Source: Actinomycetes bacterium (GTDB taxonomy: Bacteria > Actinomycetota > Actinomycetes > Nanopelagicales > Nanopelagicaceae). Taken from it: a DNA stretch of 50,152 bases. Under the pieces are notes generated by a model. It was not told the origin of the DNA, searched no databases, and was given only the letters and a program-made list of their open reading frames with translations. Shown here piece by piece: positions 21,743 through 49,785 of this stretch. The stretch covers positions 1 through 50,152 of the forward strand of contig JANXYY010000070.1 of assembly GCA_025355805.1 (NCBI GenBank), read 5' to 3'. Numbering within the stretch: the first letter of the stretch is position 1; every line of letters begins with the position of its first letter. A program made the translations under genes and the position numbers.

Positions 21743-22750
21743 ATGTCTGCACCAGTGGGGTTCATGGACGGCTTCGGCCGTCGGAAGAAAGACCTCCGCG
21801 TCTCCTTAACTGATCGATGCAATTTGCGTTGTGCGTACTGTATGCCGGTCGAAGGGTTGGCTTGGCTTCCAAACGATTCACTCCTAACTGATGATGAGAT
21901 TATTCGCGTCCTTAAGGTCGCGATTCAGCATGGGATTGAACGGGTACGCCTCACTGGTGGAGAGCCGTTGATCCGGCCGTCCATAGTTGAGATTGTTCAA
22001 TCGATTGCCGCGCTTTCGCCACGCCCGGAGATAACCCTCACAACTAACGGCATTGGGTTAGCTTCATTGGCTGAACCGTTGGCTAAAGCGGGACTTGATC
22101 GAATCAACGTTTCACTTGACACTCTGGATGCGGATCGCTTTGCCGCCATCACGCATCGCAATCGCTGGGCTGACGTAATCGCAGGTTTGGAAGCAGCCAA
22201 GGCCACCACCCTTAAGCCGATCAAAGTGAATTCAGTGCTCTTACGTGGGATCAACGACGACGAGGCGCCAGCACTCTTGGATTGGGCTCTTGCAAACGGG
22301 TATTCGTTGAGGTTTATTGAACAGATGCCTCTTGATCCTCAGCATGGGTGGAGTCGCGAAGAGATGATTAGCGCCGACGAGATTCTGCGTCAATTATCAC
22401 TAACGCATCGACTGTCACCTGTTGGACAATTGAGTAGAGGTTCTTCGCCAGCCGAAGAGTTTTTAGTTGGTGATGGGCCAGCGACGGTTGGTATTATTGG
22501 CAGCGTTACCCGTCCATTCTGTGCAGATTGTGATCGACTCAGGCTCACCGCAGACGGCCAAATTCTAAACTGCCTCTTTGCAAAAGAAGAGGATGATCTG
22601 CGAGCCATACTACGTTCAGGGTCATCCAATATTGATGCCGAAATTGCCAGAGTTTTCTTCGGATCCGTTGCGAAGAAAAAAGCTGGGCATGGAATTGGCG
22701 AGCCAGGTTTTGAACAGCCGTCACGTCCGATGTCTGCGATAGGCGGATAG
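21743..22750 (+). CDS. moaA: GTP 3',8-cyclase MoaA (radical SAM)
   Basis: A 335-aa ORF with the radical-SAM motif CNLRCAYCMP, LTGGEPL and the C-terminal second cluster CADCDRLRLTADG. Confidence 0.92.
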   Translation: MSAPVGFMDGFGRRKKDLRVSLTDRCNLRCAYCMPVEGLAWLPNDSLLTDDEIIRVLKVAIQHGIERVRLTGGEPLIRPSIVEIVQSIAALSPRPEITLTTNGIGLASLAEPLAKAGLDRINVSLDTLDADRFAAITHRNRWADVIAGLEAAKATTLKPIKVNSVLLRGINDDEAPALLDWALANGYSLRFIEQMPLDPQHGWSREEMISADEILRQLSLTHRLSPVGQLSRGSSPAEEFLVGDGPATVGIIGSVTRPFCADCDRLRLTADGQILNCLFAKEEDDLRAILRSGSSNIDAEIARVFFGSVAKKKAGHGIGEPGFEQPSRPMSAIGG

Positions 22751-24642: not shown

Positions 24643-25125
24643 ATGCCCACGCTCTACTTACTTAGACATGCCAAGGCGGAGAAGGCAGTAAAACATGCCT
24701 GGGATCCAGCCGAGGATCGCAGTCGCCCACTCACAGCGGGTGGAATGGCCGATGCAACGGCGGTTGGACGCTGGTTTCGGGTCCGTAATTTGATTCCCGG
24801 GCTTGCCCTTGTCTCACCGGCCAAGCGAACTCTGCAGACGTGGCAGCTTGCCGCCAACGAGTTGGGAGCCTGGCTGCCAATCAGGGTGGAAGAGGCACTT
24901 TACGAAGCCAGTGTTGAGGATCTCCTTCGAATCATTCGAGGGTTGCCGCCCCAATTCACCAGCGCCCTGGTAGTTGGCCACGACCCGTCTCTCAGCGATT
25001 TTCTGGGCTCCGATTTGGCTACCTGCTCGCTGGCAAGGATCGAGTTGGATGACTGGAACTCTCTCACGCCTGAGCCGACTGGAGTCAAGATTCGTCGGAT
25101 TAGGTCGGGGGATGACGACGCCTAA
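24643..25125 (+). CDS. Histidine phosphatase family protein (SixA-like)
   Basis: A 160-aa ORF with the N-terminal LYLLRHAKA (RHG/RHA motif) and a later VVGHDPS motif. Confidence 0.75.
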   Translation: MPTLYLLRHAKAEKAVKHAWDPAEDRSRPLTAGGMADATAVGRWFRVRNLIPGLALVSPAKRTLQTWQLAANELGAWLPIRVEEALYEASVEDLLRIIRGLPPQFTSALVVGHDPSLSDFLGSDLATCSLARIELDDWNSLTPEPTGVKIRRIRSGDDDA

Positions 25126-25258
25126 CAAATAGTGACCAAAGGCTTAGCAGAAAATTACAAACCCCTGCTTCGCGGACGCCTATTAGATATGGAGCAGTGC
25201 AAGTCGGGCAGAGCAACACTTGAAGAGTTCGCCGTCGTCCCAGAAGAGGCAGGTAGTC

Positions 25259-27328
25259 GTGGGCAGCATCCGAATTGGGATCGACACCGGGGGCACTTTC
25301 ACGGATGTGGTAGCTCTAGACGAAATCAGTGGACGAATTGTCACCACCAAGACTCCTTCGACTCCGAGCGATCCAGCCGATGGCTTCATGAACGGGATCG
25401 ACAAGGTCTTAAAGTTGATTGGGGCCGACTCGACGGAGATCATCTCGGTAAGCCATGGAACCACTGTGGCCACTAATCAACTCCTTGAAGAAAAGATCGA
25501 TGAACTTGGATTCATTACTACTGAAGGTTATGAATTCATTCTTGAAATTGCTAGGCAATCTGTCCCAGACGGCTATGGAAATTCATATTTTTGGGTTAAA
25601 CCACCACGCCTAGTCCCAGCGGATCTCGTGCGGACCGTAGGTGGTCGAATGAATTCGAGGGGAGAAGAAATACGGCCCTTTAACCGTGACGATGCAGTAG
25701 CGGCAGCGCGGTACTTGAAGCAACGTGGGATAAATACACTCGGAGTCTGTTTCCTGCACTCATACGCTAATCCCGCTCATGAATTGGCTATGCGCGAAGT
25801 TCTGCGAGTGGAACACCCCGATGCAGTTCTCTCAATTTCGAGCGAAGTTTTGCGCGAATATCGCGAATATGAACGTTCGATAACGACGTTGGTTGACGCA
25901 GCGGTAAAGCCACGGGTCGCTCGCTATATTGCCAATATCAAGTCTCGCCTCGATACCTTCACCGCCGACCTGATCCCGTTCTACGTTATGAAAAGCAATG
26001 GTGGCGTCCTATCGGCCGATGAGGTTGTGCATCAGCCGATCACCACAGTCCTGTCGGGCCCCGCCGCAGGCGCCTTAGGCGCCGCATTGATCGCGCAGCG
26101 AGCGGGTTTCGATCGAGTGCTCACCTGTGACGGCGGAGGTACTTCTACCGATGTGAGTGTCGTGATTAACGGCGAGCCGACCCTGACGACCGAAGGAAGC
26201 GTTGGTCGCTACCCAAGCAAAATACCGATGATCGATGTCGTAACGGTCGGAGCAGGCGGTGGCTCGATTGCGTGGATCTCACCAGAAGGAACTCTCAAAG
26301 TCGGACCTAAATCAGCTGGTGCAGACCCCGGGCCAATGTGTTATGGAAAAGGTGGCACCGCGCCAACTATTACTGACGCACATCTTGTGCTCGGACGGAT
26401 CCCACCACACTTACTCGGAGGTGAGATCCCACTTCAGTTGTCTGCGGCCGAGACCGGAATTGCGGACTTGGCTCAGCGAATTGGGCGAACGCTGGAAGAC
26501 TGCGCCACCGGAATTCTAGAAATCTCGGCTTGGAATCAAGCAAATGCACTTCGACAAATCACGGTTAAGCGCGGTCTAGATGTTCGAGATTTTTATCTAA
26601 CGACTTTTGGCGGGTCAGGATCGCTACTCCTTTGCCGACTGATCGATATCTTGAGTCTGGCAGGTGTGATCGTGCCCTTGAATCCAGGAAATCTTTCGGC
26701 CTTTGGTTTGCTCACCGTGGACGTGAAAAACGATTACGTCCAAACTTCCGTTGCCCAGCATGGAGACCTTGATCTAAATCTGGTGGAGCAATTATTTAGT
26801 GAACTTAGCCAGAAGGCAGCAATTGCACTGGATAAAGAAGGTTTTGCTCGCGCTTCTCATCAATATCGGCGGACGGCAGATCTTCGATATTTCGGTCAAG
26901 CCTACGAAGTTCGAGTTGATTGCCCATCCGGAGAAATCAATCTTGGGTGGGCAGCCCGAGTCGCAGAAAACTTTCACTCCGAACATGAACGTCTCTATGG
27001 ATACTGCTTCCGCGGAGATCCACGTCAACAGGTCGAGTGGGTTAACTTCCGAGTTTCTGGAATAGGACCAATTCGACGGCCCGAGGTCTTAGAAATGCTG
27101 GTGGGTGATGGCAACCATGAACGTGCTCGCTCTGGAGATCGCCAAATCTGGTTCGACGGACCGCGCATCACTACGCCAATTTATTCGCGAGCTTTGCTCG
27201 CGCCGGGCGACCAAATCCTCGGACCCGCAATTATCGAAGAGTTTGGTTCAACGATCCCGATCCATCCGGGATTCAAAGTTCGGATTGATGCATTTGGCAA
27301 TTTGATTGTCACCAAGGAGAGTGAGTGA
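25259..27328 (+). CDS. Hydantoinase/oxoprolinase family, A (ATP-binding, ASKHA-fold) subunit
   Basis: The N-terminus IRIGIDTGGTFTD is present, and a second phosphate-binding motif CDGGGTSTDVS lies mid-protein. I prefer GTG 25259, which has AGAAGAGG upstream, over the track's TTG 25220. The 3' end overlaps the next gene by 4 nt. Confidence 0.85.
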   Translation: MGSIRIGIDTGGTFTDVVALDEISGRIVTTKTPSTPSDPADGFMNGIDKVLKLIGADSTEIISVSHGTTVATNQLLEEKIDELGFITTEGYEFILEIARQSVPDGYGNSYFWVKPPRLVPADLVRTVGGRMNSRGEEIRPFNRDDAVAAARYLKQRGINTLGVCFLHSYANPAHELAMREVLRVEHPDAVLSISSEVLREYREYERSITTLVDAAVKPRVARYIANIKSRLDTFTADLIPFYVMKSNGGVLSADEVVHQPITTVLSGPAAGALGAALIAQRAGFDRVLTCDGGGTSTDVSVVINGEPTLTTEGSVGRYPSKIPMIDVVTVGAGGGSIAWISPEGTLKVGPKSAGADPGPMCYGKGGTAPTITDAHLVLGRIPPHLLGGEIPLQLSAAETGIADLAQRIGRTLEDCATGILEISAWNQANALRQITVKRGLDVRDFYLTTFGGSGSLLLCRLIDILSLAGVIVPLNPGNLSAFGLLTVDVKNDYVQTSVAQHGDLDLNLVEQLFSELSQKAAIALDKEGFARASHQYRRTADLRYFGQAYEVRVDCPSGEINLGWAARVAENFHSEHERLYGYCFRGDPRQQVEWVNFRVSGIGPIRRPEVLEMLVGDGNHERARSGDRQIWFDGPRITTPIYSRALLAPGDQILGPAIIEEFGSTIPIHPGFKVRIDAFGNLIVTKESE

Positions 27329-29166
27329 TGTCAATCGATGCCATTCTGGTTGAAATTGTTGAAGGGACGCTCGCTTCAGTTGAGATGGAAGTGGAAACGG
27401 CAATCGCTAGGACCTCCCGATCGCCAATGATTCGCGATGCGCACGATTTTCGCGCCGGTATCCATGATCGAAAATTGCGAAAACTGACGGGACGCTCTTA
27501 TTCGGCTCTAGTCCACCCAATCGTGAGGGATTACCCGCTTGAATCGATGCGTCAGGGAGATGTCTTTTTTCACAACGACGTCTACCAGTCTGAAGGCGGA
27601 ATAGGCCACTTGCCCGATCTTTGCGTGACGGTCCCCGTCTTTCACCTTGGCGAAGTCGTCGCATTCGTTCAGGCATTCGGCCACCACGACGATATCGGGG
27701 GCGCATGCCCTGGCTCGATGCCGTCCGGCGCCACGAGCGTCTTCGAAGAGGGTCTGATGGTGCCTCCGATTCGTCTTTGGGACCAAGGGATTCCAAACGA
27801 ATCGGCGCTTAAAATCATGACCAGAAATTCCCGGATGCCAGATTCGTTGGCAGCCGATCTTGATGCCGAATGTTCGGCTTGTTTGATGGGTGCGCAACGG
27901 TTGTCTGAATTATTTGACCGTTATGGTCGGGAAACAATTGAGAGTTGCTTTGATGCGATTCTGGATAAGACGACTGAAACTTATAAGCGAGAGATCCTAT
28001 CCAAGATCCCGGATGGCACTTTTGTTTGGGAAGATTACGCTGAACATGATGGCGTTGACGCACCGCGGTTGCACACCCAGCGCATTACTTTGACGAAGAC
28101 TCCGGAGAAAATCATTATCGACTTCACTGGAACCTCTCCTCAAGCGAAGGGCCCAATCAATCACTGTGGCGATTATGCCGATGGAAACTTTCTCAAAAAA
28201 TGGCTTGCACCGATTCTTCGTAATCTTGCTGACACTCCCGAACGAATGGCTGAGTTGGATGTAAATGAAGGCGTTGTTCCGCTCATCGAAATGATCTTTC
28301 CACCGAAAGGGACCTTACTTACCCCCATCTTCCCAGCTCCAACCAATGCCAGAACCTTCGTAATCTTGCGACTTCTCGGGGTTCTCGCGGGAGTCTTGGC
28401 AAAAGCCGTTGATGGCAAGATGCCGGCGGATCAAGAGACCATCCGTTACACGGGTGTTTATGGCGACGATTTAGCTGGTGACTCGTATCTGATGCGTGAA
28501 GTTTTGGGTGGTGGTTCTGGTGGACGCTATTACGCCGATGGCGAGGACACGATCCATGTGGTCCCGGATTCGCGAAACCTACCCACCGAATTTACTGAAT
28601 CGCGATTCCCATTCATTGTCGAGCGACTTGGACTTGCAATTGATTCGGGGGGTGCTGGACGTTACCGAGGTGGCCTTGGCTACGAAAAGCACATCCGAAT
28701 GCTGAAGGATGCAAATTTTATGAGTATCGCTGATCGTTCGATTCTCGCTTGTTGGGGATTGAAGGGTGGTAAAGCAGGAGCCTCTTTCTCGGTGACCATT
28801 GATGTCGGGGGCGCTAACGAACGCAACATCGATGCCCTAGCCGACGCTGCACCAGTGAAACAAGGGGAGATCATCCGAATCCGAACCACCGGTGGCGGAG
28901 GATGGGGAGACCCGCTGCTGCGGCCCTTTGCCGATGTCGAACGGGATCTTAGGTGGGGCAAAGTGTCTTTCGCCGGCGCCCAAACCGATTATGGGGTGAT
29001 CGCATCAGGAACCAAAGACGATCCACTGATCGACGTTACCGCCTCAATCGAACTGCGCAAGGAGTTATCTGCGCTCAGAACAGGGCTAGAACCATTTTTC
29101 GACCGCGGACCTGGTTACGCTCAACTTTCGGGCGGAAAACTATTTGCGGAGGTTGATTTCGTGTGA
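27325..29166 (+). CDS. Hydantoinase/oxoprolinase family, B subunit
   Basis: A 613-aa ORF with a typical HyuB N-terminus (DAILVEIVEGTLASVEMEVETAIARTSRSPMIRDAHDF), ...FHNDVY...GHLPD... and the C-terminal GGGGWGDP. Confidence 0.85.
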   Translation: MMSIDAILVEIVEGTLASVEMEVETAIARTSRSPMIRDAHDFRAGIHDRKLRKLTGRSYSALVHPIVRDYPLESMRQGDVFFHNDVYQSEGGIGHLPDLCVTVPVFHLGEVVAFVQAFGHHDDIGGACPGSMPSGATSVFEEGLMVPPIRLWDQGIPNESALKIMTRNSRMPDSLAADLDAECSACLMGAQRLSELFDRYGRETIESCFDAILDKTTETYKREILSKIPDGTFVWEDYAEHDGVDAPRLHTQRITLTKTPEKIIIDFTGTSPQAKGPINHCGDYADGNFLKKWLAPILRNLADTPERMAELDVNEGVVPLIEMIFPPKGTLLTPIFPAPTNARTFVILRLLGVLAGVLAKAVDGKMPADQETIRYTGVYGDDLAGDSYLMREVLGGGSGGRYYADGEDTIHVVPDSRNLPTEFTESRFPFIVERLGLAIDSGGAGRYRGGLGYEKHIRMLKDANFMSIADRSILACWGLKGGKAGASFSVTIDVGGANERNIDALADAAPVKQGEIIRIRTTGGGGWGDPLLRPFADVERDLRWGKVSFAGAQTDYGVIASGTKDDPLIDVTASIELRKELSALRTGLEPFFDRGPGYAQLSGGKLFAEVDFV

Positions 29167-30332
29167 CTAGCGGTCCGCTAGCCGGTGTCGTCGTAATCGA
29201 TTTATCACGCGCACTAGCTGGTCCACATGCGGCGATGATGCTCGGAGATATGGGCGCTCGCGTAATTAAAGTTGAGAATCCAGATGGCGGTGATGACACC
29301 CGCGGCTGGGGCCCACCTTTCGTAGGCCAGGCTCAGGCAATTGAGTCAACATATTTTCTATCGTGCAATCGCAACAAGGAATCGATCACTCTTGACTTGA
29401 AAGCAGAGAACGGCAAGACGATTCTCGAACGGTTAATTAAACAGGCGGATGTTCTCGTCGAAAATTTTAGGCCAGGAGTCATGGATCGCCTGGGCTTCGA
29501 CAATGAACATTTACACGAACTGAATCCGAGGCTGGTAATACTTTCGATTTCGGGATTCGGTCATGATGGTCCTGAGGGTGGCCGTGCTGGTTACGACCAA
29601 ATAGCTCAGGGCGAAGCTGGCCTGATGTCTCTAACGGGTTCCTCGCCGGATGAACCAACTCGCGTAGGTGTTCCGATTGGCGATCTACTGGCCGGCATGT
29701 ACGGCGCGTATGGTGCGGTCGCGGCACTCCACGAACGAAATAGCACTGGTATTGGCCGAGTCGTGCGAACTTCACTGCTTGCCTCGATCGTGGGCGTTCA
29801 CGCGTTTCAAGGAACTCGCTACACGGTTGCTGGAGAGATTCCCAAAGCCAGCGGCAACCACCATCCATCTATCGTTCCTTATGGACTTTTTCATTGCAGT
29901 GATGGATTTTTGCAAATCGCGATCGGCTCAGAAAATTTGTGGCGTTTATTTGCACCCGCCTTTGGAGTTGACAAACCTGTCTACGCAACGAACGCGTTAC
30001 GCGTCGGCGCCCGCATTGAATTAGTTGGTGAAATCGAAGCGGCCTTCGCCACCTGGAGTGTCGTGAATCTACTCGAGAGGCTTACAAACTTAGGAATTCC
30101 ATCTGGTGAGGTCCGCTCGCTCGATCGAGTTTATGAATGGGATCAGACCAAATCGCAAGGGCTCTTAATGGATGTTGAGCATTCATCACTCGGCCTAATT
30201 ACGATTCCAGGACCGCCGCTTCGCATCGAAGGAGTTGGATCTATCGGTCATCGTCCAGACCCTCTAGCTCCACCTCGATTGGGCGAACATACGGATTCAA
30301 TTTTGTCGTGGCTTGATTCCCTTGACGCTTAA
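29163..30332 (+). CDS. Type III (CaiB/BaiF/Frc family) CoA-transferase
   Basis: A 389-aa ORF with N-terminal VVIDLSRALAGPHAAMMLGDMGARVIKVENP...GDDTRGWGPPF and the ENFRPG motif. The conserved Asp context is GVPIGDLLAGMYGA. Its GTG start overlaps the hyuB stop (GTGA). Confidence 0.85.
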   Translation: MTSGPLAGVVVIDLSRALAGPHAAMMLGDMGARVIKVENPDGGDDTRGWGPPFVGQAQAIESTYFLSCNRNKESITLDLKAENGKTILERLIKQADVLVENFRPGVMDRLGFDNEHLHELNPRLVILSISGFGHDGPEGGRAGYDQIAQGEAGLMSLTGSSPDEPTRVGVPIGDLLAGMYGAYGAVAALHERNSTGIGRVVRTSLLASIVGVHAFQGTRYTVAGEIPKASGNHHPSIVPYGLFHCSDGFLQIAIGSENLWRLFAPAFGVDKPVYATNALRVGARIELVGEIEAAFATWSVVNLLERLTNLGIPSGEVRSLDRVYEWDQTKSQGLLMDVEHSSLGLITIPGPPLRIEGVGSIGHRPDPLAPPRLGEHTDSILSWLDSLDA

Positions 30333-31838
30333 GTGAGCAGCGCTTCGATGACGAAACGATTGAGTGCCGAAGAGTTAATCATGATGGTGCTTGATCCAGG
30401 TTCATTTATTTCTTGGGATCACAATATTGATGATCCAGCCAACGCCTCCATGCAATACCTTGCAGAACTAAGCCAAGCACGTGCCAAATCTGGAACCACT
30501 GAAGCGATTCTCACTGGGGAGGGTTTCATCAAGGGTCGCAAGGTGGCAATCGTGATCGGCGAGTTCGCGTTTCTGGCTGGCTCAATTGGGGTGGGTGCAG
30601 CGACTCGCATAATCGAGGCATTCGAACGGGCTACTCGTGAACGCTTGCCGCTTCTAGCCGCACCGGTCTCTAGTGGTACGAGAATGCAAGAGGGAACGCT
30701 CGCTTTCATGCAGATGGTGGGAATCACTGGAGCTGTCGTGGCTCATAAGGCAGCAGGCTTGCCTTACTTGGTTTATTTACGGCATCCAACAACTGGTGGG
30801 GTCCTTGCCTCGTGGGGTTCGCTTGGGCATGTAACCGTCGCCGAACCTGGAGCACTAATTGGCTTCCTTGGCCCACGTGTTTACCAGGCGCTTCATGGTC
30901 AACCATTCCCCAAAAATGTACAGACCTCCGAAAATCTTTTCGCACACGGTCTTTTGGACGCCGTTCTTGCACCTGAACGTTTGGCTGAGATCACCTCAAG
31001 GGCTCTGACGGTTCTGGCTCCTGATCACAACACTTTTAGGACTGTGCCAACAATCGAAAAGGAACCACTTGCAGAGCACACCGCCTGGGAATCCATCACT
31101 CTCACTCGGGCGGCAAATCGGCCAGGAGTTCGTTCACTTCTGCGCTACGGCGCTAATAATGTTTTGCGACTACACGGAACCGGCGAAGGGGAGAGTCAAC
31201 CAACTTTGCTATTGGCTTTGGCACGCTTTGGCAACGCCCCATGCATCCTGCTTGCCCAAGATCGGGTTAACGGCGATAGACCTTTGGGACCGGCTGGTTT
31301 ACGTGAAGCTCGACGTGGGATGAAATTGGCATCCGAGTTAAAAATACCTTTGGTCACTGTGATTGACACTCCTGGCGCCTCGCTCTCTAAGGAGTCGGAG
31401 GAAGGCGGCTTAGCCGGCGAGATTGCGCGTTCGTTGGCTGACCAGATCGCCCTCGATGCACCCACACTGTGTGTCTTGTTGGGCCAAGGCGGCGGTGGCG
31501 GAGCCTTGGCCATTCTGCCGGCCGATCGGGTGATTGCAGCTGAACACGCATGGCTTTCACCGCTGCCTCCCGAAGGTGCCTCGATAATCGTTCATCGGAC
31601 CACCGATTTCGCGCCCCAAATGGCAGCTGAGCAGGGGGTGCGAGCGCGAGACCTCCTTGCAGCGGGAATCGTCGATCGCATTGTCGCCGAGCGACCAGAT
31701 TCCGCTCGGGAACCCGAGGAATTTGCTAAGCGTCTGTCGCAAATACTTGAGCATGAGTTGATCGCCCTAATCGAGGCTGATCCGATCCAGCGCCTGGCCA
31801 AACGTTTAGCCAGATATCGGAATCTAGGTCGGAATTAA
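30333..31838 (+). CDS. Fused carboxyltransferase (AccD-like beta half plus AccA-like alpha half)
   Basis: A 501-aa ORF. The N-terminal half aligns by eye to AccD (FAFLAGSIGVGAA..., SSGTRMQEG, PTTGGVLASW, AEPGALIGFLGPRV) but lacks the AccD Cys4 zinc ribbon. The C-terminal half aligns to AccA (RPLGPAGLREARRGMKLASELKIPLVTVIDTPGA..., GQGGGGGALA, LSPLPPEGASII). The start could instead be ATG 30348. Confidence 0.8.
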   Translation: MSSASMTKRLSAEELIMMVLDPGSFISWDHNIDDPANASMQYLAELSQARAKSGTTEAILTGEGFIKGRKVAIVIGEFAFLAGSIGVGAATRIIEAFERATRERLPLLAAPVSSGTRMQEGTLAFMQMVGITGAVVAHKAAGLPYLVYLRHPTTGGVLASWGSLGHVTVAEPGALIGFLGPRVYQALHGQPFPKNVQTSENLFAHGLLDAVLAPERLAEITSRALTVLAPDHNTFRTVPTIEKEPLAEHTAWESITLTRAANRPGVRSLLRYGANNVLRLHGTGEGESQPTLLLALARFGNAPCILLAQDRVNGDRPLGPAGLREARRGMKLASELKIPLVTVIDTPGASLSKESEEGGLAGEIARSLADQIALDAPTLCVLLGQGGGGGALAILPADRVIAAEHAWLSPLPPEGASIIVHRTTDFAPQMAAEQGVRARDLLAAGIVDRIVAERPDSAREPEEFAKRLSQILEHELIALIEADPIQRLAKRLARYRNLGRN

Positions 31839-31945
31839 GCGAGCGCTGGTTTTCGATTGCGGGTGGCATTTTGCGCCCGTGATTCCATTGACTCTGGGCA
31901 AACTCTGCCCGCTTGTTCACGGCACTGTTAGGGCAGGCTAGACAA

Positions 31946-32896
31946 GTGCGACTTCTAATTGCTCTAGGCGGGAACGCGATGACCGCACCCGACGGCGGCG
32001 CCAGACCGATTGATCAAGAGCGAGCGATAACCACTGCCATGGAACATGTGGCAGATTTGATCGCCGAGGGCTATCAAGTTCTCTTGACTCACGGTAATGG
32101 ACCTCAGGTCGGAAATCTGCTCGTTAAAAATGAAATTGCGGCGAGTGTGGTCCCGCCAGTACCCCTCGATTGGTGCGGGGCACAGACGCAAGGAACGATT
32201 GCCCTCTTGATAATGAATGCACTTGATGGTGCGCTCGCCGCTCGAGGACTCAAAGGTCGTTCTGCTGGTTTAGTTTCGCGCACACTGATCGATCCAGCTG
32301 ATCCTGGATTTGCAAACCCGAGCAAGCCAATTGGGCGCTATCTGCCAAAGTTGGAAGCCGAGAAGTTGGCGATCCATGGTCAGATTTGGGAAGACCGTGG
32401 TGAACGCGGTTGGCGCCGAGTTGTTGCCTCTCCTCAGCCTCTGGAAATTTTAGAAGTTGACGCGATCAAACAACTTATGGCCGGGGGATTTCTGGTCATC
32501 GCCGCCGGTGGCGGTGGAATCCCGGTGGTACGCGATGCGGCAGGCACCCTCAAAGGCGTCGAAGCGGTTCTCGATAAAGACCTAACGGCGGCGTTGCTGG
32601 CTCGCCAGGTTGAAGCGGACCTCTTGATTATTGCAACGGACGTACCAAACGCAGTTGTCGGTTGGGGTACGCCGCAGGCTCGCGCGATCGGTCGGATCTC
32701 GGTCGTCGAATTGCGAGCGCTAGCGGCAGAAGGGTATTTCGCAAGCGGGAGCATGGGTCCAAAGGTCGAGGCGGCTTGTCGGTTTGCCGAAGGCGGTGGC
32801 GTTAGTGTGGTGACCTCGCTAGATCAAATTCGAAACGCGGTTACGAGTGTCGAAATCGCTCGATTCGATGTTGGAACCATCGTTGTTGCTAGTTAG
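31946..32896 (+). CDS. arcC: Carbamate kinase
   Basis: Carbamate kinase motifs are present along the whole length: LIALGGNAM, THGNGPQVGN, KPIGRY, GERGWRRVVASPQP, GGGGIPVV, KGVEAVLDKD and FASGSMGPKVEAA. I prefer GTG 31946 over the track's TTG 31913 on N-terminal length. Confidence 0.88.
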   Translation: MRLLIALGGNAMTAPDGGARPIDQERAITTAMEHVADLIAEGYQVLLTHGNGPQVGNLLVKNEIAASVVPPVPLDWCGAQTQGTIALLIMNALDGALAARGLKGRSAGLVSRTLIDPADPGFANPSKPIGRYLPKLEAEKLAIHGQIWEDRGERGWRRVVASPQPLEILEVDAIKQLMAGGFLVIAAGGGGIPVVRDAAGTLKGVEAVLDKDLTAALLARQVEADLLIIATDVPNAVVGWGTPQARAIGRISVVELRALAAEGYFASGSMGPKVEAACRFAEGGGVSVVTSLDQIRNAVTSVEIARFDVGTIVVAS

Positions 32897-32941
32897 ATTT
32901 AGTTAAATGAAGTTGCCATCCCGTAATCAGAAGGAGTAGTC

Positions 32942-34060
32942 GTGTCAGAGAAGCCGCAGGCTATTGAAGTCCGCAAAGTCGCGATCAAGCATGTAAGCGA
33001 TGCAAGCGGATTAGAAGAGCTCATCGATTCCGGGGTCATCGAAGCAGATCGAGTCGTTGCGATTATCGGCAAAACGGAGGGCAATGGCGGCGTGAACGAT
33101 TACACGCGAATCATTGCTGATCGAGTGTTTCGCGAAGTATTGGTGACTAAAGGAAGCCGTTCAGTCGCGGATGTTAAGCAAATTCCGATTGTTTGGTCGG
33201 GCGGAACCGATGGGGTTATTAGTCCGCATGCAACGATCTTCGCGACGGTATCGCCAGAGAAAACTATTAAGACTGACGAGCCTCGCGTCTCGGTTGGATT
33301 CGCCATGAGTGAGGCAATCCTGCCCGAAGAAATTGGCTATATGGGCATGGTAAACAAGGTTGCCGCAGCCGTAACGATCGCCATGGCGCGCGCTGGAATT
33401 ACTGACCCTGCCGATGTGCACTATGTACAGACAAAGACACCGCTACTCACAATCCATACGATTCTTGACGCACATAGTCGAGGCATGAAGGTATGGACCG
33501 AGAACACCCACGAGTCCATGGACCTCTCGAATGGGACAACGGGTCTTGGGGTTGCGCTCGCACTTGGTGAAGTTAAGAGTGTTAGCGACAGCGACATCAT
33601 GCACAATCGAGGCATCTTCTCCGCGGTCGCATCTTGCTCTTCTGGAGTGGAATTAGACCAGGCGCAGGTTGTGGTAGTCGGAAACGTGCGAGGTATCGGT
33701 GGGCGTTATCGAATCGGACATTCGGTGATGAAAGATGCACTTGATCAAGACGGAATTTGGGCCGCGATCAGAAGTGCTGGATTGGAATTACCAGAGCGTC
33801 CGCATCACACTGACCTCAAAGGACGACTCGTCAACGTCTTTCTCAAATGTGAGGTATCACCAGATGGAATCGTAAGAGGGCGACGCAATGCGATGCTCGA
33901 TGATTCAGACGTGCACTGGCACCGTCAGATTAAGGCGGCGGTTGGCGGAGTTGCGGCGGCGGTAACCGGCGATCCTGCGGTATTCGTCTCGGTGTCAGCA
34001 GTTCACCAAGGCCCGGCCGGCGGTGGCCCAGTGGCAGCGATTGTTGATTTGGGAGAGTGA
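32942..34060 (+). CDS. Ring-opening (cyclic amide) amidohydrolase, cyanuric acid hydrolase/barbiturase (AtzD/TrzD) family
   Basis: A 372-aa ORF that is colinear by eye with AtzD. Matching blocks are [69 protein letters not shown] and [12 protein letters not shown]. The GTG start at 32942 is preceded by GAAGGAG. Confidence 0.85.
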
Positions 34061-34755
34061 GGATTGCCGAACCTCTTTTTCCAAATGACGACGGGTCAGC
34101 AAATCCGCAACTAATCGCCGCGATGAGCGGCGGAGATCGGTATGAAATTGTCCGTGCCCTCGCCAAGGCTCGGGTGTTCATCGCGCTCCTGGCCAAACTC
34201 GAAAGCCCAGCGATCGAGACGCCTGGGGCAAAGATTCGGAGCGCTGACGCAGGGATCGAGCAAGAGAGCGAAGTGTCCCTGGCCTGGCTCGTCGATGGAT
34301 CAGTCAAGGCATTGCCAATATTCACCAGCATTGCAGCACTCAACGCTTGGAATGTGGTCGCGCGACCGCTTGGAGTCGAGGCCCAACGCGCTGCCGTGGT
34401 GGCCCTGGCAGATGGCGAAATCGCAGTTATGGATCCAGGCGGCAAACACCCCATCGAGATCGGGCCAAGCGCGCTCCGCTCGCTCGCACTGGGCTACGAA
34501 TATGTGCCCATCTCTGTTGACCCCGAAGTAAGGCGAGCTATCGAAGAAGCGCTCGAGGGGAGCCTGGACGGTGGGCAAAAGATTGATTTCTCCGTCTTTG
34601 GCGATTTTCCAGATGACTTCGTAATTACCCTGGCTGGACCAATCCCAGCACCAGATCATGCTCAGCTGAGCGCATTGGCGCGCCATCTGGCCGAGGACGC
34701 CCGTATTCGCCTGCGACTGGAGGCTGGGTTGCAGGTCAAGATCGCTACGCGATAG
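34057..34755 (+). CDS. SseB-family protein (function unknown)
   Basis: A 232-aa acidic protein with an SseB-like core ([15 protein letters not shown]...). Its GTG start overlaps the amidohydrolase stop (GTGA). The family assignment is by recollection and is not verified. Confidence 0.55.
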
Positions 34756-40620: not shown

Positions 40621-40660
40621 CATAAATATACATTCGTGACTAAATAGATGTATATTTATG
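40621..40660. promoter_or_regulatory. Candidate ArgR operator (tandem ARG-box region) overlapping a candidate argC promoter
   Basis: A perfect 13-bp inverted repeat: CATAAATATACAT (40621-40633) and ATGTATATTTATG (40648-40660), separated by 14 nt. It lies in a strongly AT-rich 45-nt gap directly upstream of and overlapping the argC start. TATACA-N18-TATATT fits a -35/-10 pair. Confidence 0.5.
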
Positions 40661-41692
40661 CGTATGACAGTGCGGGCAGCGGTTGCCGGGGCGAGCGGCT
40701 ATGCGGGGGGCGAGTTACTCCGCATCCTAAGCGGCCATCCAGATTTTGAAGTCGGTGCCATCACGGCCGCACAGAGCGCAGGAACGCGGCTGGGCGATGT
40801 TCATCCGCAGTTGTGGTCCCTTCGCGATCGATGCATCGAGGTAACTTCGGTGGCTAACTTGGAAGACGCGGACGTAGTTTTCCTGGCCTTGCCTCATGGT
40901 GAATCCGCAAAGTTGGTACGCGAACTCGAAGGTGTGCGATTAATCGTCGATTTGGGCGCCGATTTTCGATTAGGCAGTCCGGAAAGTTGGCAGCAGTTTT
41001 ATGGTGGTGATTATTCGGGGCAATGGACCTACGGACTACCTGAGTTAGCGGGTGCTCGCGCGAAGATCGCTAAAAGTTCCCGAATCGCTAATCCGGGTTG
41101 TTATGCCACGAGTGCCATTCTTGGTTTGGCTCCGCTGCTTGTCGACGATTTGATCGAGCCGAAAGACATCGTCATAGTGGCAGCATCCGGCACCTCTGGA
41201 GCCGGGCGCGCGATCAAATCACAACTCATGGGCAGCGAAGTTATGAATTCGATGTCCACTTACAAAGTCGGGGGAGTGCATCAGCACACACCAGAAATCG
41301 AGGAGATGTTGGGACGAGTGGCCGGGACACAAATCGGCATTTCATTTACGCCACTCTTAGCCCCAATGCCCAGAGGGATTATCGCGACATTAACTGCCAC
41401 GGTTAAGGGCGCTAAATCCGCCGATATTCAACGTTCGCTCAGCAATGCTTACGCGGATGAATCTTTTGTTCACTTTTTGCCCGACGGGATCTGGCCAATT
41501 ACCGCCTCGACGTTCGGAAGCAATTCGGTTCAGATGCAAGCGGTGGTCGACGAACGCGCCGGGCGTGCAATTATCACCGTGGTGCTCGACAACTTAGTTA
41601 AGGGCGCAGCAGGTCAGGCGATTCAAAATGCAAATATTGCCTTGGGCTTTTTGGAGACAGCGGGATTATCAGCCGAGGGAATAGCGCCATGA
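40658..41692 (+). CDS. argC: N-acetyl-gamma-glutamyl-phosphate reductase
   Basis: A 344-aa ORF with AVAGASGYAGGELLR and the active-site NPGCYAT. The start could be ATG 40658, ATG 40664 or GTG 40670. Confidence 0.92.
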   Translation: MRMTVRAAVAGASGYAGGELLRILSGHPDFEVGAITAAQSAGTRLGDVHPQLWSLRDRCIEVTSVANLEDADVVFLALPHGESAKLVRELEGVRLIVDLGADFRLGSPESWQQFYGGDYSGQWTYGLPELAGARAKIAKSSRIANPGCYATSAILGLAPLLVDDLIEPKDIVIVAASGTSGAGRAIKSQLMGSEVMNSMSTYKVGGVHQHTPEIEEMLGRVAGTQIGISFTPLLAPMPRGIIATLTATVKGAKSADIQRSLSNAYADESFVHFLPDGIWPITASTFGSNSVQMQAVVDERAGRAIITVVLDNLVKGAAGQAIQNANIALGFLETAGLSAEGIAP

Positions 41693-42840
41693 GCGTCACT
41701 TTTCCGAAAGGTTTTCTGGCAGCTGGGATTTCAGCTGGACTAAAATCAAGCGGCGCTAAAGATTTAGCGCTCGTAGTGAACAGCGGACCATTAAAAAGTG
41801 CTGCGGCCCGCTTCACAAGCAATCGAGTCAAAGCAGCCCCAGTGCTCTGGAGCGAGCAAGTGCTCAAGGACGGGCGAGTTGATGCCGTCATTCTCAATTC
41901 GGGTGGTGCCAACGCGTGTACCGGGAACGAAGGATTTCTCGACGTTCATCGCACCGCCGAATTTGTCTCCGATTTGCTTGGCGTAAGCGCGACCGACATT
42001 GCTGTCTGCTCAACTGGACTCATCGGTGTTCGCCTTCCGATGGATCGCATCATTCATGGAGCGAGCCTGGCGCACGGCGAGCTCAGTCGGACCGGGGGTC
42101 TTGATGCAGCTCTCGCGATCATGACAACTGACACGGTTTCCAAAACGTTCGAAATTGAAAGTGATGGAGTTCGAGTGGCTGGAATGGTGAAAGGTGCTGG
42201 GATGTTGGCTCCTTCGCTGGCGACAATGTTGGCCGTTATCACCACCGACGCCATGGTGGACCCAAAAGTTCTAGATGGAATCCTCGGGGAAGTGGTTGAA
42301 CACACTTTCAATCGGATTGATTCCGATGGTTGCACCTCAACCAATGACACGGTTCTACTTCTGGCTTCTGGTGCTAGTGCTATTGAGATGCCCGAACGTC
42401 AACTCCGAGAGATGGTTTCTACCGTCTGTCAAAATCTTGCACGTCAACTCGTGACGGATGCCGAAGGGGCAAGCAAAGAAGTAGAGATTACGGTAATAAA
42501 TGCAGCGTCTGAGTCAGATGCCCTAGAAGTCGGTCGAGTGTGCGCTCGTAACAATCTCTTGAAATGCGCAATTCACGGAGAGGACCCAAATTGGGGTCGA
42601 GTTCTAGCGGCAGTCGGAACTACGAGTGCGGTTTTCGAACCCCAGCAGATCGATGTTTCAATCAACGGCATCACGCTTTGTCGGGGTGGCTCGATTGGCG
42701 ATGACCGGATCCTTGTGGATATGACGGGCCGGATAGTCGAAATCATTATCGATCTGAAGGCCGGAACGAGTTCTGCAACGATCTGGACGAATGATTTGAC
42801 GGCGGAGTACGTGCATGAGAATTCTGAGTATTCGTCATGA
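41689..42840 (+). CDS. argJ: Bifunctional ornithine acetyltransferase / N-acetylglutamate synthase
   Basis: A 383-aa ORF with an autoproteolytic-site context (GAGMLAPSLATML, T nucleophile) and the C-terminal LTAEYVHENSEYSS. Confidence 0.92.
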   Translation: MSVTFPKGFLAAGISAGLKSSGAKDLALVVNSGPLKSAAARFTSNRVKAAPVLWSEQVLKDGRVDAVILNSGGANACTGNEGFLDVHRTAEFVSDLLGVSATDIAVCSTGLIGVRLPMDRIIHGASLAHGELSRTGGLDAALAIMTTDTVSKTFEIESDGVRVAGMVKGAGMLAPSLATMLAVITTDAMVDPKVLDGILGEVVEHTFNRIDSDGCTSTNDTVLLLASGASAIEMPERQLREMVSTVCQNLARQLVTDAEGASKEVEITVINAASESDALEVGRVCARNNLLKCAIHGEDPNWGRVLAAVGTTSAVFEPQQIDVSINGITLCRGGSIGDDRILVDMTGRIVEIIIDLKAGTSSATIWTNDLTAEYVHENSEYSS

Positions 42841-43658
42841 GCCTTGAGCGATTCCTTGGGCGAACGCTCGTCGTTAAATATGGTGGAAATGCGATGATCG
42901 ATTCTGCGCTGAAGGAGAGCTTCGCCTCTGATGTGGTGGCGCTGGCTCGAAACGGAATTCATATAGTTGTAGTTCACGGCGGTGGACCACAGATTAATGA
43001 AATGCTCATGAAACTATCGATCGAAGTCGTATTTGCTGGTGGCTTCCGAGTTACGGATGCACAAACTATGTCGGTAGTTGAGATGGTATTGAGTGGTGTC
43101 GTGCAGCCCGAGATCGTTGGTCTGATCAATCACGCCGGCGGGAATGCGGTGGGGCTTTCAGGAATCGATGGAAATCTTCTGGTTTGTGAACGACGCGACG
43201 TGATGGTCGAAGGTAAGCCTACGAATATTGGGTTAGTGGGTGATGTTGTACGGGTAAATCCGGGGATCCTTCAAAACCTACTAAATGCTTCATACGTTCC
43301 AGTAGTTTCCTCTTTTGGTAACGACAAGTCAGGTCGGACCCTAAATGTGAACGCCGATACCGCAGCCGGATCCATCGCTGGCGCGTTGACGGCTGATGCA
43401 CTTGTTATGTTGACGGATGTTGCCGGTCTGTACGCCGATTGGCCCGCTACTTCAACGGTTATTCCTCAATTGAGCGCCGAGGCCCTGCGCGAACTTCTGC
43501 CCTCTCTAACCAGCGGCATGGTTCCGAAGATGGAAGGCTGTTTGAGAGCGCTCGACTTAGGTGCTAAAGAAGTGCTGGTGATTGATGGACGCGTTCATCA
43601 CGGGTTGTTTGCCGCGCTCGAGGCATCGGATTTCCTCGGTACTCGGGTCCTGCCATGA
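42837..43658 (+). CDS. argB: Acetylglutamate kinase
   Basis: A 273-aa amino-acid-kinase fold with VVKYGGNAM, VVVHGGGPQI and NVNADTAAG. Confidence 0.92.
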   Translation: MSLERFLGRTLVVKYGGNAMIDSALKESFASDVVALARNGIHIVVVHGGGPQINEMLMKLSIEVVFAGGFRVTDAQTMSVVEMVLSGVVQPEIVGLINHAGGNAVGLSGIDGNLLVCERRDVMVEGKPTNIGLVGDVVRVNPGILQNLLNASYVPVVSSFGNDKSGRTLNVNADTAAGSIAGALTADALVMLTDVAGLYADWPATSTVIPQLSAEALRELLPSLTSGMVPKMEGCLRALDLGAKEVLVIDGRVHHGLFAALEASDFLGTRVLP

Positions 43659-44842
43659 TTGACGAGAGCGGCCAGACGGACGCGCTCCTTGCGCACTGGC
43701 GTGAGTTGATGCAATCCAATTACGGAGTGCCACGGATTGCTCTAGTGAGCGGCTCGGGTGCCGAAGTGGTAGATGCTGAAGGTCGTAAATACACCGATTT
43801 TCTCGGTGGAATCGCCACAAATGTCCTGGGGCACGCAAACCCAGAAATAGTGGCCGCAGTTTCTACGCAGATTCGACAATTGGGGCACGTGAGCAATCTT
43901 TACGCCCACCCGAAAGCACTGTCGCTGGCCGCCAAGCTTCGACGATTATCAGGTGACGATTCTGCTCGAATCTTTTTTTGTAACTCAGGAGCCGAAGCAA
44001 ACGAAGCTGCATTTAAACTTTCTAGGCTCACTGGCCGCACCAAAGTGATCGCCATGCACGGCGCCTTTCATGGAAGGACAATGGGCGCACTCGCCCTCAC
44101 TGGGCAACCAAGCAAAGCGGATCCATTCCGCCCTCTGCCGACGGGAGTAGTTCATGTCCCGTTTGGGGATTTGGCCGCAGTTGCCGAGTTGATCGACGAC
44201 GAAACTGCAATGGTGATGGTGGAACCAATCCAGGGCGAAGCCGGCGTGGTTACTCCACCTCCTGGATATCTAGTCGGACTTCGCGAATTAACAATGAGAT
44301 TCGGGGTGCTCCTAGCGTTGGATGAAGTCCAAAGTGGGATGGGACGAACCGGAACTTGGTTCGCCCATCAGGCGGACGGAATTTCACCGGACATAATCAC
44401 CATGGCAAAAGGTCTTGGCGGCGGATTACCGCTCGGAGCGATGTTGGCACTTGGTTCGGCGTCTGGATTTTTTCAACCCGGTTCACATGGTTCAACCTTC
44501 GGTGGGAATCCAGTTGCCTGCGCCGCAGGGTTGGCCACAATCGAGGTGATCGAACGTGACGGAATGCTGGAAAACAACGCGTCTCTCGGGAAATATCTGG
44601 CAACCGAACTGAGTCACCTTAATCAAGTCGAGGAGGTGCGGGGCCGTGGCCTGCTCATCGGAATCGGTTTTAGGACCGAGATCGCCTACCAAGTTCAACT
44701 ACTGCTTGAAGAGCGAGGGTTCTTGTCAAATGCGGCTAGTGCTTACACGCTTCGATTGGCACCTCCCTATGTCATCACTGAAGCCGATATTGACCGCTTT
44801 GTCGCGACGTTGGCAGAAATCCTAAAGGAGACGACGCTATGA
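43655..44842 (+). CDS. argD: Acetylornithine aminotransferase
   Basis: A 395-aa class III aminotransferase with NSGAEANEAA, DEVQSGMGRTG and PDIITMAKGLGGG (PLP Lys). Confidence 0.92.
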   Translation: MIDESGQTDALLAHWRELMQSNYGVPRIALVSGSGAEVVDAEGRKYTDFLGGIATNVLGHANPEIVAAVSTQIRQLGHVSNLYAHPKALSLAAKLRRLSGDDSARIFFCNSGAEANEAAFKLSRLTGRTKVIAMHGAFHGRTMGALALTGQPSKADPFRPLPTGVVHVPFGDLAAVAELIDDETAMVMVEPIQGEAGVVTPPPGYLVGLRELTMRFGVLLALDEVQSGMGRTGTWFAHQADGISPDIITMAKGLGGGLPLGAMLALGSASGFFQPGSHGSTFGGNPVACAAGLATIEVIERDGMLENNASLGKYLATELSHLNQVEEVRGRGLLIGIGFRTEIAYQVQLLLEERGFLSNAASAYTLRLAPPYVITEADIDRFVATLAEILKETTL

Positions 44843-45414
44843 CTGCGCTCCCAAGAACATCGCCTCGGACCAAAGCGGCACGCCGAGAATTAATCATGGA
44901 TTTATTGGTCTCCGGCGAAATTCGATCACAGGTCGAATTGACCCAAATCTTGATAAAAAGAGGTTTCTTGGTAACTCAGGCAACCGTCAGTCGCGATTTA
45001 GAAGATCTTGGTGCCACCAAAATCAGGAATGAAACTGGCTCGCTGACTTACGGGATTTCGCCCAGTCGCCCACACCTGGAAGACCCGATCAATCGGGTTA
45101 TTCGAGTTGCCCAAGACCTTCTCATCTCGGCGGAGGCCAGCGCAAACTTGGTGGTGCTGCGCACACCTCCCGGCGGTGCACACCTGTTGGCGAGTGCACT
45201 GGATCAAGCAATTACAACATTTGCCCTGCCAGAATTGCTTGGCACGGTTGCCGGAGATGACACTGTTCTAGTGATAACTCGAAAGCCCGAGGGTGGAGAA
45301 GCGGCTGCCGCGCAAATTCTTCGACTTTCTGAAGGTTTACTCAAAATAACTTCGGCTGACCAAAGACAAAAGAGCGAAATTCATGGAAAACAAGAAGAAG
45401 GGAAACGCTCGTGA
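44839..45414 (+). CDS. argR: Arginine repressor
   Basis: A 191-aa ORF with the N-terminal wHTH ([29 protein letters not shown]) and the C-terminal oligomerisation/arginine-binding motif [11 protein letters not shown]. An extra charged tail of about 25 aa is present. Confidence 0.9.
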
Positions 45415-49582: not shown

Positions 49583-49785
49583 GGAATGTTGCCCCGAAGA
49601 CGGTCGGAAGACCTGAGATCGGTGCGCGTCCGTACCTTGAGAACTCAACAGCGTGCCACAAGTCAATGCCAATTAAACCTCGTCGTTGGGGTTGTTTGAT
49701 CTTTGGATCAAGCCACACCAATAACGAAATTCCTTTGGTGAATGACATAACTAAAGCTAGTTACGTCAAGCGCCAGATCAAGCCT

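Follow-up and report, generated by a model that had tools for sequence, protein, structure and literature searches.

What joint function, if any, is served by six genes that lie closely packed in the genome of an actinobacterium of the Nanopelagicaceae? The question is raised by a stretch of 50,152 nucleotides (contig JANXYY010000070.1, assembly GCA_025355805.1), the whole of which was analysed and is referred to here as the window. A previous inspection of the letters and translations (the sequence-only reading) had described six tightly packed genes on one strand at 25.2–34.1 kb, had named their families and had proposed a candidate pathway for the catabolism of a cyclic amide or ureide. All six open reading frames (ORFs) are intact on the + strand, and a profile hidden Markov model check was run in which Pfam and NCBIfam agree with all six family names. 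We consider it probable that the block, with its malonyl-CoA module, forms the core of an extended actinobacterial oxidative pyrimidine pathway. The block is made up as follows.

25220–27328, + strand: HyuA (Pfam Hydant_A_N, Hydantoinase_A and Hydant_A_C)
27325–29166, + strand: HyuB (Pfam Hydantoinase_B, full length, 456 bits)
29163–30332, + strand: type III CoA-transferase (CoA_transf_3, PF02515, 378 bits)
30333–31838, + strand: fused AccD-like/AccA-like carboxyltransferase, 501 amino acids (Pfam Carboxyl_trans/ACCA)
31839–31945, no strand: intergenic gap of 107 nt, read from the letters, from the carboxyltransferase to the carbamate kinase
31913–32896 (ORF; likely gene 31946–32896), + strand: carbamate kinase (NF009007)
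32942–34060, + strand: barbiturase, EC 3.5.2.1 (Amido_AtzD_TrzD, PF09663, 472 bits)

The argument starts from the last gene. When the encoded hydrolase was compared with PDB sequences, the best match was 'Barbiturase' (PDB entry 5HWE, Rhodococcus; 635 bits, approximately 80% identity, full length), whereas the best cyanuric acid hydrolase scored 305 bits and cyanuric acid hydrolases share at most 45% identity with the window protein. Residues 9–369 align to positions 1–358 of the 358-position PF09663 profile, and TIGR02714 is matched with 556 bits. The window protein and 5HWE both carry the motif ESMDLSNG, which reads ESMGYSRG in the cyanuric acid hydrolase 5T13, so that an Asn stands in place of a substrate-binding Arg. 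This position is equivalent to Arg188 of the Azorhizobium enzyme, which belongs to a set of three Arg residues that serve the three carbonyls of the ring. The barbiturase subgroup is without this substrate-binding Arg, which is conserved in cyanuric acid hydrolases (PMC4051656). The AtzD/TrzD/barbiturase family is small: 1.8 billion representatives, searched exhaustively, yielded 252 clusters at E<=1e-30 and no informative domain fusions, and the barbiturase clade forms one full-length 50%-identity cluster whose next full-length relatives are at most 45% identical. By homology, the last gene is a barbiturase, orthologous to the characterized enzyme. The sequence-only reading had placed the protein in the right family but had left the choice between AtzD and barbiturase open; with the identities and the Arg-to-Asn position given above the case is not ambiguous, cyanuric acid hydrolase is rejected, and cyanurate and generic heterocyclic ureides are unlikely substrates.

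The protein also passes the NCBIfam equivalog model NF052395, 'cyanuric acid amidohydrolase' (458 against a cut-off of 360). The same model is passed, with 477, by a Rhodococcus qingshengii protein (L056 9992–11107) that is approximately 99% identical to 5HWE; NF052395 does not separate barbiturase from cyanuric acid hydrolase. Public labels within the cluster of the window protein are 'ring-opening amidohydrolase-like' or 'cyanuric acid amidohydrolase', and annotation pipelines will label such barbiturases cyanuric acid hydrolases.

Recurrence of the arrangement was examined in a scan in which each species was represented by one genome. More than 570 relatives of the window barbiturase were found and the best 80 (77–85% identical) were analysed, each viewed over 10 kb on either side of the barbiturase gene; genes were labelled by tblastn with the window proteins and by a GC3-filtered gene call. 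The 80 loci come from many genera and from at least eight named actinobacterial families (Intrasporangiaceae, Dermatophilaceae, Nocardioidaceae, Micromonosporaceae, Streptosporangiaceae, Motilibacteraceae, Geodermatophilaceae and Ruaniaceae), and also include Rhodococcus, Phytoactinopolyspora, Cryptosporangium, Haloechinothrix, Arachnia and several lake metagenome-assembled genomes. A carbamate kinase gene lies directly upstream of the barbiturase gene in 71 of them, the median distance between the two being 66 nt. HyuB is found within 10 kb in 48 loci, 46 of which combine it with carbamate kinase and barbiturase; 44 loci contain a CoA-transferase gene and 34 a carboxyltransferase gene. The complete set of six stands in the window order in 12 loci, including those of Phytoactinopolyspora, Knoellia, Intrasporangium and Janibacter, and, beyond these 12, in Streptomyces inhibens. 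Elsewhere the order is shuffled, as in Mariniluteicoccus (barbiturase, HyuA, HyuB, NmrA, CoA-transferase, carbamate kinase) and in the Propionibacteriaceae genome G1746 (CN-hydrolase, barbiturase, four small genes, HyuA, HyuB, NmrA, carbamate kinase), and the carbamate kinase gene is kept in the operon despite the shuffling, in the runs HyuA–HyuB–NmrA–carbamate kinase and CoA-transferase–carbamate kinase. This recurrence is far beyond chance. The two halves of the block, which the sequence-only reading had joined into one functional module across the 107 nt gap, are decisively found together in other genomes. The four genes between barbiturase and HyuA in G1746 (L089 1897–4064; 161, 134, 115 and 310 amino acids) have no Pfam match on record.

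In the oxidative pathway described from Rhodococcus, uracil is oxidized to barbiturate, barbiturase converts this to 3-oxo-3-ureidopropanoate (ureidomalonate) and ureidomalonase yields urea and malonate, the latter being the expected carbon product (PMC3758960). Related loci in larger genomes carry genes that fit the other steps. In Micromonospora a same-strand array runs from PucR, an NCS2 permease, the FAD, 2Fe–2S and molybdopterin (Mo-pterin) large subunits, CoxG and a CN-hydrolase to HyuA, HyuB, carboxyltransferase, carbamate kinase, barbiturase and an AMP-forming ligase. Among permease models RutG is the best (348 bits; uracil permease 254, xanthine permease 148), and the large subunit of the molybdenum hydroxylase (Mo-hydroxylase) matches the NCBIfam model 'aerobic CODH group 5' (CODH, carbon monoxide dehydrogenase; 1475 bits). 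Three-subunit Mo-hydroxylases with CoxG and XdhC stand beside a RutG-like permease in three loci (L082 2401–6902, L077 3854–8597 and L083), and Mo-hydroxylase with CoxG adjoins HyuAB in 13 of the 13 loci where it was seen. This form-II-CODH-like Mo-hydroxylase with CoxG is a strong candidate for uracil/thymine dehydrogenase, an enzyme for which we know of no assigned gene. An amidase (PRK07486) or CN-hydrolase gene lies immediately upstream of HyuA in 11 cases. Around the characterized Rhodococcus barbiturase gene are XdhC, PucR, an NCS2 permease, a divergent carboxyltransferase and CoA-transferase, a further PucR and, after barbiturase, a PRK07486 amidase, which is the obvious candidate for ureidomalonase; neither HyuAB nor carbamate kinase is encoded close to this locus. 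On plasmid pRZP2 of Rhodococcus sp. ZPP the order is Mo-hydroxylase, CoxG, HyuAB and NmrA.

Because the block holds a barbiturase ortholog and related operons add a RutG-like permease, Mo-hydroxylase, PucR and amidase or CN-hydrolase, we regard it as extending the oxidative pyrimidine route or as a variant of that route; for the same reasons, the suggestion in the sequence-only reading that the genes form a route different from that pathway has been given up. The pathway of Rhodococcus erythropolis consists of three enzymes (uracil/thymine dehydrogenase, barbiturase and ureidomalonase, EC 3.5.1.95) and ends at urea and malonate, whereas the block adds HyuAB, carbamate kinase, CoA-transferase and carboxyltransferase to the approximately 80% identical barbiturase, and the window is without dehydrogenase and amidase. 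A purine or urate route via pseudouric acid was considered and rejected, because it does not suit the minimal block, and because the permease resembles RutG and is not of the xanthine type.

For the CoA-transferase and the carboxyltransferase the most likely joint role is to turn malonate into acetyl-CoA. Residues 6–377 of the CoA-transferase align to positions 1–366 of the 366-position PF02515 profile, and its best NCBIfam models are the succinate–glutarate and oxalate CoA-transferases, all of which score under their equivalog cut-offs. The enzyme is swapped for a ligase in Micromonospora and in locus L040, the Micromonospora ligase being best matched by malonyl-CoA synthase (469 bits, under the cut-off of that model), and a MatC dicarboxylate (malonate) carrier lies immediately upstream of the CoA-transferase in locus L012. 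Carrier and ligase are features shared with MatABC; unlike MatABC, the block has no MatA-type decarboxylase. In the carboxyltransferase, residues 9–219 align to positions 56–270 of the accD profile TIGR00515, the zinc ribbon of AccD thus being absent, and residues 242–500 are AccA-like; both scores lie below the equivalog cut-offs (162 versus 317 for AccD and 154 versus 357 for AccA). No biotin carboxyl carrier protein (BCCP), biotin carboxylase or acyl carrier protein (ACP) was found, either in the block itself or in the related loci that are annotated. In malonate decarboxylase (MdcA–E, or MadA–F of Malonomonas) malonate is similarly exchanged onto a thioester carrier by means of the acetyl thioester and decarboxylated by an AccD/AccA-type enzyme, with regeneration of the acetyl thioester. 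The carrier in the block would be free CoA, loaded by a type III CoA-transferase, whereas Mdc/Mad uses a dedicated ACP with MdcA; the carboxyltransferase halves are fused, ACP, MdcA and MdcB/G are absent, and the similarity to MdcD and MdcE is weak (30.6 and 22.2 bits; E ~1e-5 to 1e-7, with 1.6e-5 for MdcD). The pair may act like malonate decarboxylase by analogy, without being orthologous to MdcD/E. It also stands beside the characterized Rhodococcus barbiturase and its amidase, and it looks like a portable module that turns dicarboxylates into acyl-CoA; the contexts of two further carboxyltransferase homologs were uninformative.

The same pair was observed on a plasmid of Rhodococcus sp. USK13 (L088 6796–9452), with overlapping genes and a carboxyltransferase 51% identical to that of the window. 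The surrounding cluster is of an aromatic-type catabolism, with VOC-family proteins (possibly ring-cleavage dioxygenases), alpha/beta-hydrolases and a hydroxyphenylpropionate hydroxylase.

The HyuAB of the block shares its two-subunit architecture and all Pfam domains with N-methylhydantoinase, 5-oxoprolinase and caprolactamase, HyuA having the three-domain architecture of the family and adjoining and overlapping HyuB. The nearest solved relatives of HyuA are N-methylhydantoinase (7HK5, 471 bits) and caprolactamase (6YRA); HyuB scores 209 bits against N-methylhydantoinase and 40 bits against the acetone carboxylase alpha subunit. By these scores HyuAB resembles the hydrolytic members of the family and not acetone carboxylase. 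It nevertheless forms a distinct subfamily far under the NCBIfam equivalog cut-offs (CapA 517 versus 1000, CapB 189 versus 1000 and ApcC 299 versus 1500). HyuA is 63–76% identical to cluster orthologs of other orders. HyuB cluster orthologs are 75–86% identical across orders and other HyuB proteins at most 42%; wherever the context of the HyuB subfamily was readable in the collections searched it was a barbiturase or Mo-hydroxylase cluster, and the neighbourhood of a 42% identical HyuB was uninformative. Judged from these comparisons, the HyuB subfamily is tight and pathway-specific. An HyuAB of the acetone or acetophenone carboxylase type was rejected on account of the weak similarity, and a single locus with a carbonic anhydrase was judged insufficient to support it. 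In that locus, from Phytoactinopolyspora halophila, a beta-class carbonic anhydrase is encoded between HyuB and CoA-transferase (L008 5122–5850, − strand), a single case that might hint at an involvement of CO2 or bicarbonate.

The carbamate kinase passes NF009007 (300 bits against a cut-off of 266) and falls below the cut-off of TIGR00746 (318 against 358). It scores 237 bits against the carbamate kinases of Pyrococcus furiosus and Enterococcus faecalis and 28 bits against acetylglutamate kinase, and an identity of approximately 45% to the P. furiosus enzyme was read off the alignment. As the most faithful partner of barbiturase it implies a carbamoyl-phosphate intermediate. In the anaerobic oxalurate branch of Escherichia coli a catabolic carbamate kinase makes ATP from carbamoyl phosphate (PMC9843812). 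That branch of allantoin degradation (oxamate carbamoyltransferase and AllK/YbcF) is comparable in that an N-acylurea is the likely donor of carbamoyl phosphate, ureidomalonate being one CH2 longer than oxalurate. It differs in its transcarbamoylase: the block has neither a transcarbamoylase nor genes of the FdrA/YlbE/YlbF type (AllFGH type), the latter having been found neither in nor near the cluster. Since no transcarbamoylase-like gene recurs near the carbamate kinase–barbiturase pairs of the related loci either, the ATP-dependent HyuAB is preferred as the source of carbamoyl phosphate within the cluster.

Enzymes of the 5-oxoprolinase type O-phosphorylate an amide and pass through an acyl-phosphate intermediate. 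In the favoured scheme barbiturase would open barbiturate to ureidomalonate, as its homology predicts, and HyuAB with ATP would phosphorylate and cleave the ureido group to give carbamoyl phosphate and malonamate. Carbamate kinase would then convert carbamoyl phosphate and ADP to ATP, NH3 and CO2, so that both ureido nitrogens could be freed at no net cost in ATP, with neither urease nor urea as an end product. Malonamate would be deamidated by the amidase or CN-hydrolase where one is present, or handled as a CoA ester. The CoA-transferase, or the malonyl-CoA-synthase-like ligase, would load malonate and possibly malonamate onto CoA, and the biotin-independent carboxyltransferase would remove the distal carboxyl (or carbamoyl) group to leave acetyl-CoA. 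The minimal six-gene set would in this way be self-sufficient and take barbiturate to acetyl-CoA, 2 NH3 and 2 CO2. No amidase or CN-hydrolase gene was found nearby in the window or in six related lake metagenome-assembled genomes, and something in the minimal set must for this reason cleave ureidomalonate. A malonyl-type skeleton decarboxylated as a CoA thioester and a carbamate kinase that handles the carbamoyl nitrogen, both put forward in the sequence-only reading, remain the best reading of these genes. The action of HyuAB on ureidomalonate, with recovery of the ATP by carbamate kinase, is put forward tentatively. It would make HyuAB a new kind of enzyme, one that phosphorylates ureidomalonate, or possibly urea, and releases carbamoyl phosphate in place of hydrolysing an acyl phosphate, which we regard as possible though doubtful. 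For the complete explanation, comprising the extended pyrimidine core, the malonate branch and the HyuAB/carbamate kinase scheme, the chances appear about evenly balanced.

Several points weigh against this explanation. We know of no HyuAB-family enzyme that acts on a linear ureide or that releases acyl phosphate or carbamoyl phosphate. Action of the CoA-transferase and carboxyltransferase on malonamate is speculative, and the NmrA-like or short-chain dehydrogenase/reductase (SDR) gene that often lies 3' of HyuB has no role in the scheme. The pairing of an amidase or CN-hydrolase with HyuA in many loci looks like that of a hydantoinase plus carbamoylase on a cyclic substrate. Two loci (L025 and L077) have HyuAB and barbiturase without a nearby carbamate kinase, 25 loci have the carbamate kinase–barbiturase pair without HyuAB within 10 kb, and neither barbiturase nor carbamate kinase occurs in the annotated 45 kb of pRZP2 that were inspected. 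The counts come from 80 loci picked for their closeness to a single protein and do not describe a random sample. Within the 50 kb window there are no homologs of the Mo-hydroxylase, permease, amidase or CN-hydrolase, and hence no encoded source of barbiturate; these functions must be encoded elsewhere in the genome or be dispensable.

The alternative that survives best, although it seems rather improbable, takes HyuAB as a second, ATP-dependent ring opener parallel to barbiturase, for 5-methylbarbiturate (from thymine) or another 5-substituted or reduced pyrimidine ring that is no substrate of barbiturase. Cleavage of the open ureide would fall to the amidase or CN-hydrolase, malonate or methylmalonate would be taken up by the CoA-transferase and carboxyltransferase, and carbamate kinase would be supplied with carbamoyl phosphate from outside the cluster. 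All characterized hydrolytic HyuAB enzymes, including the closest solved ones named above, open cyclic amides or ureides, the order hydrolase–HyuA–HyuB recurs, and HyuAB keeps company with the Mo-hydroxylase in all 13 loci, even where barbiturase and carbamate kinase are missing, as on pRZP2. Soong et al. are said to have found that uracil/thymine dehydrogenase oxidizes both bases and that barbiturase is specific for barbiturate, which we counted for this alternative. It leaves the carbamate kinase–barbiturase linkage in 71 of 80 loci unexplained, however, and offers no role for the NmrA-like/SDR oxidoreductase; moreover, the minimal block of the window and the six lake genomes keeps HyuAB with no amidase or CN-hydrolase to serve either branch. 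A reductive branch of NmrA, HyuAB and CN-hydrolase was also considered and rejected, as it does not fit the minimal block.

It is unlikely that HyuAB and carbamate kinase instead constitute a nickel-free and biotin-free system of urea degradation, in which an unlinked ureidomalonase releases urea, HyuAB phosphorylates it and splits it into NH3 and carbamoyl phosphate, and carbamate kinase recovers the ATP. The classical biochemistry does stop at urea and malonate (PMC3758960). Loci of the Nocardioidaceae type combine an amidase (PRK07486, as in Rhodococcus) with HyuAB, carbamate kinase and barbiturase, and carbamate kinase is present in 46 of the 48 loci with HyuB. A general urea system would, however, be expected outside barbiturate clusters as well, whereas the HyuB subfamily, wherever its context was readable in the collections searched, keeps to barbiturase or Mo-hydroxylase clusters; there is no urea transporter nearby, no ureidomalonase candidate in the window and no precedent for the chemistry.

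More unlikely still is a route in which CoA comes first. The CoA-transferase would activate ureidomalonate, and the carboxyltransferase would either perform a retro-Claisen cleavage to acetyl-CoA and allophanate or move the carboxyl group of malonyl-CoA to urea, which would stand in for biotin; allophanate would afterwards be broken down by HyuAB and carbamate kinase, with carbamoyl phosphate as the intermediate. All five enzymes other than barbiturase would be used without an extra hydrolase, and HyuB, CoA-transferase and carboxyltransferase are translationally coupled in the window. The active sites of carboxyltransferases normally bind the N-carboxy-ureido group of carboxybiotin, of which allophanate could be regarded as the minimal analogue. 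Against this, many clusters with HyuAB, carbamate kinase and barbiturase, for example in Terrabacter, have no CoA-transferase or carboxyltransferase within 10 kb, and the pair is separable as a malonate module, as seen from MatC, from the swap for a ligase and from Rhodococcus, where it occurs with the amidase and without HyuAB or carbamate kinase.

Another heterocyclic ureide (cyanurate, a substituted hydantoin or an alloxan-type compound) as the substrate, in place of pyrimidine oxidation, is very unlikely. The NF052395 score and the absence of uracil dehydrogenase and pyrimidine permease from the window itself speak for it, but the Rhodococcus barbiturase passes the same model, the window protein sides with barbiturase in identity and in its Asn (PMC4051656), and related loci hold a RutG-like permease and a Mo-hydroxylase. 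Mineralization of cyanuric acid (AtzD/TrzD, AtzEGH, and AtzF or BiuH) shares with the block a Toblerone-fold amidohydrolase of family PF09663, whereas the protein of the block falls in the barbiturase clade and no genes for AtzE/G/H/F or for biuret hydrolase (BiuH) occur in the block or the related loci. Finally, the idea that independent functions came to lie side by side through genome compaction, for which the compact genome with its common gene overlaps (for example between the barbiturase stop and the unrelated SseB-like ORF) might be cited, is effectively refuted by the same genes standing together, also in shuffled order, in large uncompacted genomes of many orders.

The junctions within the block were read from the letters. 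The sequence-only reading was correct on the first overlap itself, on GTGA at 29163–29166 between HyuB and CoA-transferase, on the abutment at 30332/30333 (CoA-transferase stop TAA 30330–30332, carboxyltransferase start GTG 30333) and on the 107 nt gap; the 'ATGA' that it gave for the HyuA/HyuB junction at 27325–27328 reads GTGA. An in-frame ATG at 27328 (GTGATG overlap) is the likely start of HyuB. HyuA probably starts at GTG 25259 and not at TTG 25220. For the carbamate kinase the most plausible start is GTG 31946 (VRLLIALGGN...), which gives 316 amino acids as in most orthologs; the public gene call for this protein uses ATG 31979 (305 amino acids) and loses the conserved N-terminal motif LIALGGNA. 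The barbiturase stop overlaps GTG 34057 of the SseB-like ORF. Inside the block there is no BCCP, ACP, regulator, transporter or amidase, as had been stated before. The gap at 31839–31945 holds no terminator-like site and no Rfam match and is loosely conserved in related lake metagenome-assembled genomes, with no clearly conserved motif; a promoter and terminator scan of the block gave nothing above chance.

The following features were recorded in the remainder of the window.

3733–5289, − strand: ORF of 518 amino acids amid housekeeping genes, without a Pfam match at E<=1e-8
21743–22750, + strand: MoaA, molybdenum cofactor biosynthesis (Radical_SAM and Mob_synth_C), 2.5 kb upstream of the block
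24643–25125: weak SixA-like His_Phos_1 protein (Pfam), upstream flank
34057–34755: SseB-domain protein, downstream flank, followed by infC-rplT-trmH-pheST
40658–48040, + strand: arginine cluster argC, argJ, argB, argD, argR, argG, argH
49785–50152, + strand: 5' end of the 16S rRNA gene, running off the window end (Rfam SSU_rRNA_bacteria, 358 bits)

The flanks are those named in the sequence-only reading, the SixA-like match being weak. Its description of the block as the only accessory content agrees with 20 further ORFs sampled across the window, all of them housekeeping (pgk, tkt, tal, suf, cta, moaA, ABC ATPases, argCJBDRGH and tyrS), but not with the apparent age of the block, which looks long-resident and not recently acquired. 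Its guanine–cytosine (GC) content of 0.51–0.57 is no different from that of the remaining window, and 20 of 83 loci, belonging to several lineages, have infC-rplT-trmH-pheS downstream of the barbiturase gene. The loci closest to the window are from lake metagenome-assembled genomes (Lac Pavin, Erken and Kiruna). A carbamate kinase 81% identical to that of the window comes from a genome labelled Candidatus Nanopelagicaceae, where the same backbone reads MFS, carbamate kinase, barbiturase, SseB, infC-rpmI-rplT-trmH-pheST-argC. Because the composition is unchanged and the site upstream of infC is common to these 20 loci, we conclude that the block has long occupied a chromosomal site that is conserved, and the idea of a recently acquired island is rejected. 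MoaA indicates that the organism makes molybdenum cofactor; a molybdoenzyme elsewhere in the genome is thus plausible, which would suit a uracil dehydrogenase that depends on Mo. The 16S rRNA start was the sole match of the Rfam scan. In the arginine cluster the argD stop overlaps the argR start, and argF (ornithine carbamoyltransferase, a user of carbamoyl phosphate) is absent between them; the usual actinobacterial order is argCJBDFRGH.

Knowledge of the biochemistry of the oxidative pyrimidine pathway goes back to the 1950s, and to our knowledge barbiturase alone among its enzymes has a well-established gene. The cluster and its relatives supply candidate genes for the others: the Mo-hydroxylase with CoxG for uracil dehydrogenase, and the PRK07486-type amidase or the CN-hydrolase for ureidomalonase. 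In most carriers they also link the pathway to HyuAB, carbamate kinase, CoA-transferase or ligase and a biotin-independent carboxyltransferase, none of which the textbook scheme accounts for. In the full-text literature we found no description of the cluster, nor of a barbiturase tied to carbamate kinase, HyuAB or CoA-dependent malonate processing, although subscription papers could mention such a context. The pathway and its key enzyme are thus known, and what is new are four conserved partner functions with at least one likely new reaction. The minimal six-gene form in compact freshwater actinobacterial genomes points to the scavenging of nitrogen and carbon from nucleobases in lakes. If the favoured scheme is true, HyuAB and carbamate kinase would provide an ATP-neutral, nickel-free and biotin-free release of both ureido nitrogens as ammonia, and the end of the oxidative pyrimidine pathway would be redefined in most Actinomycetota, the abundant freshwater lineages included.

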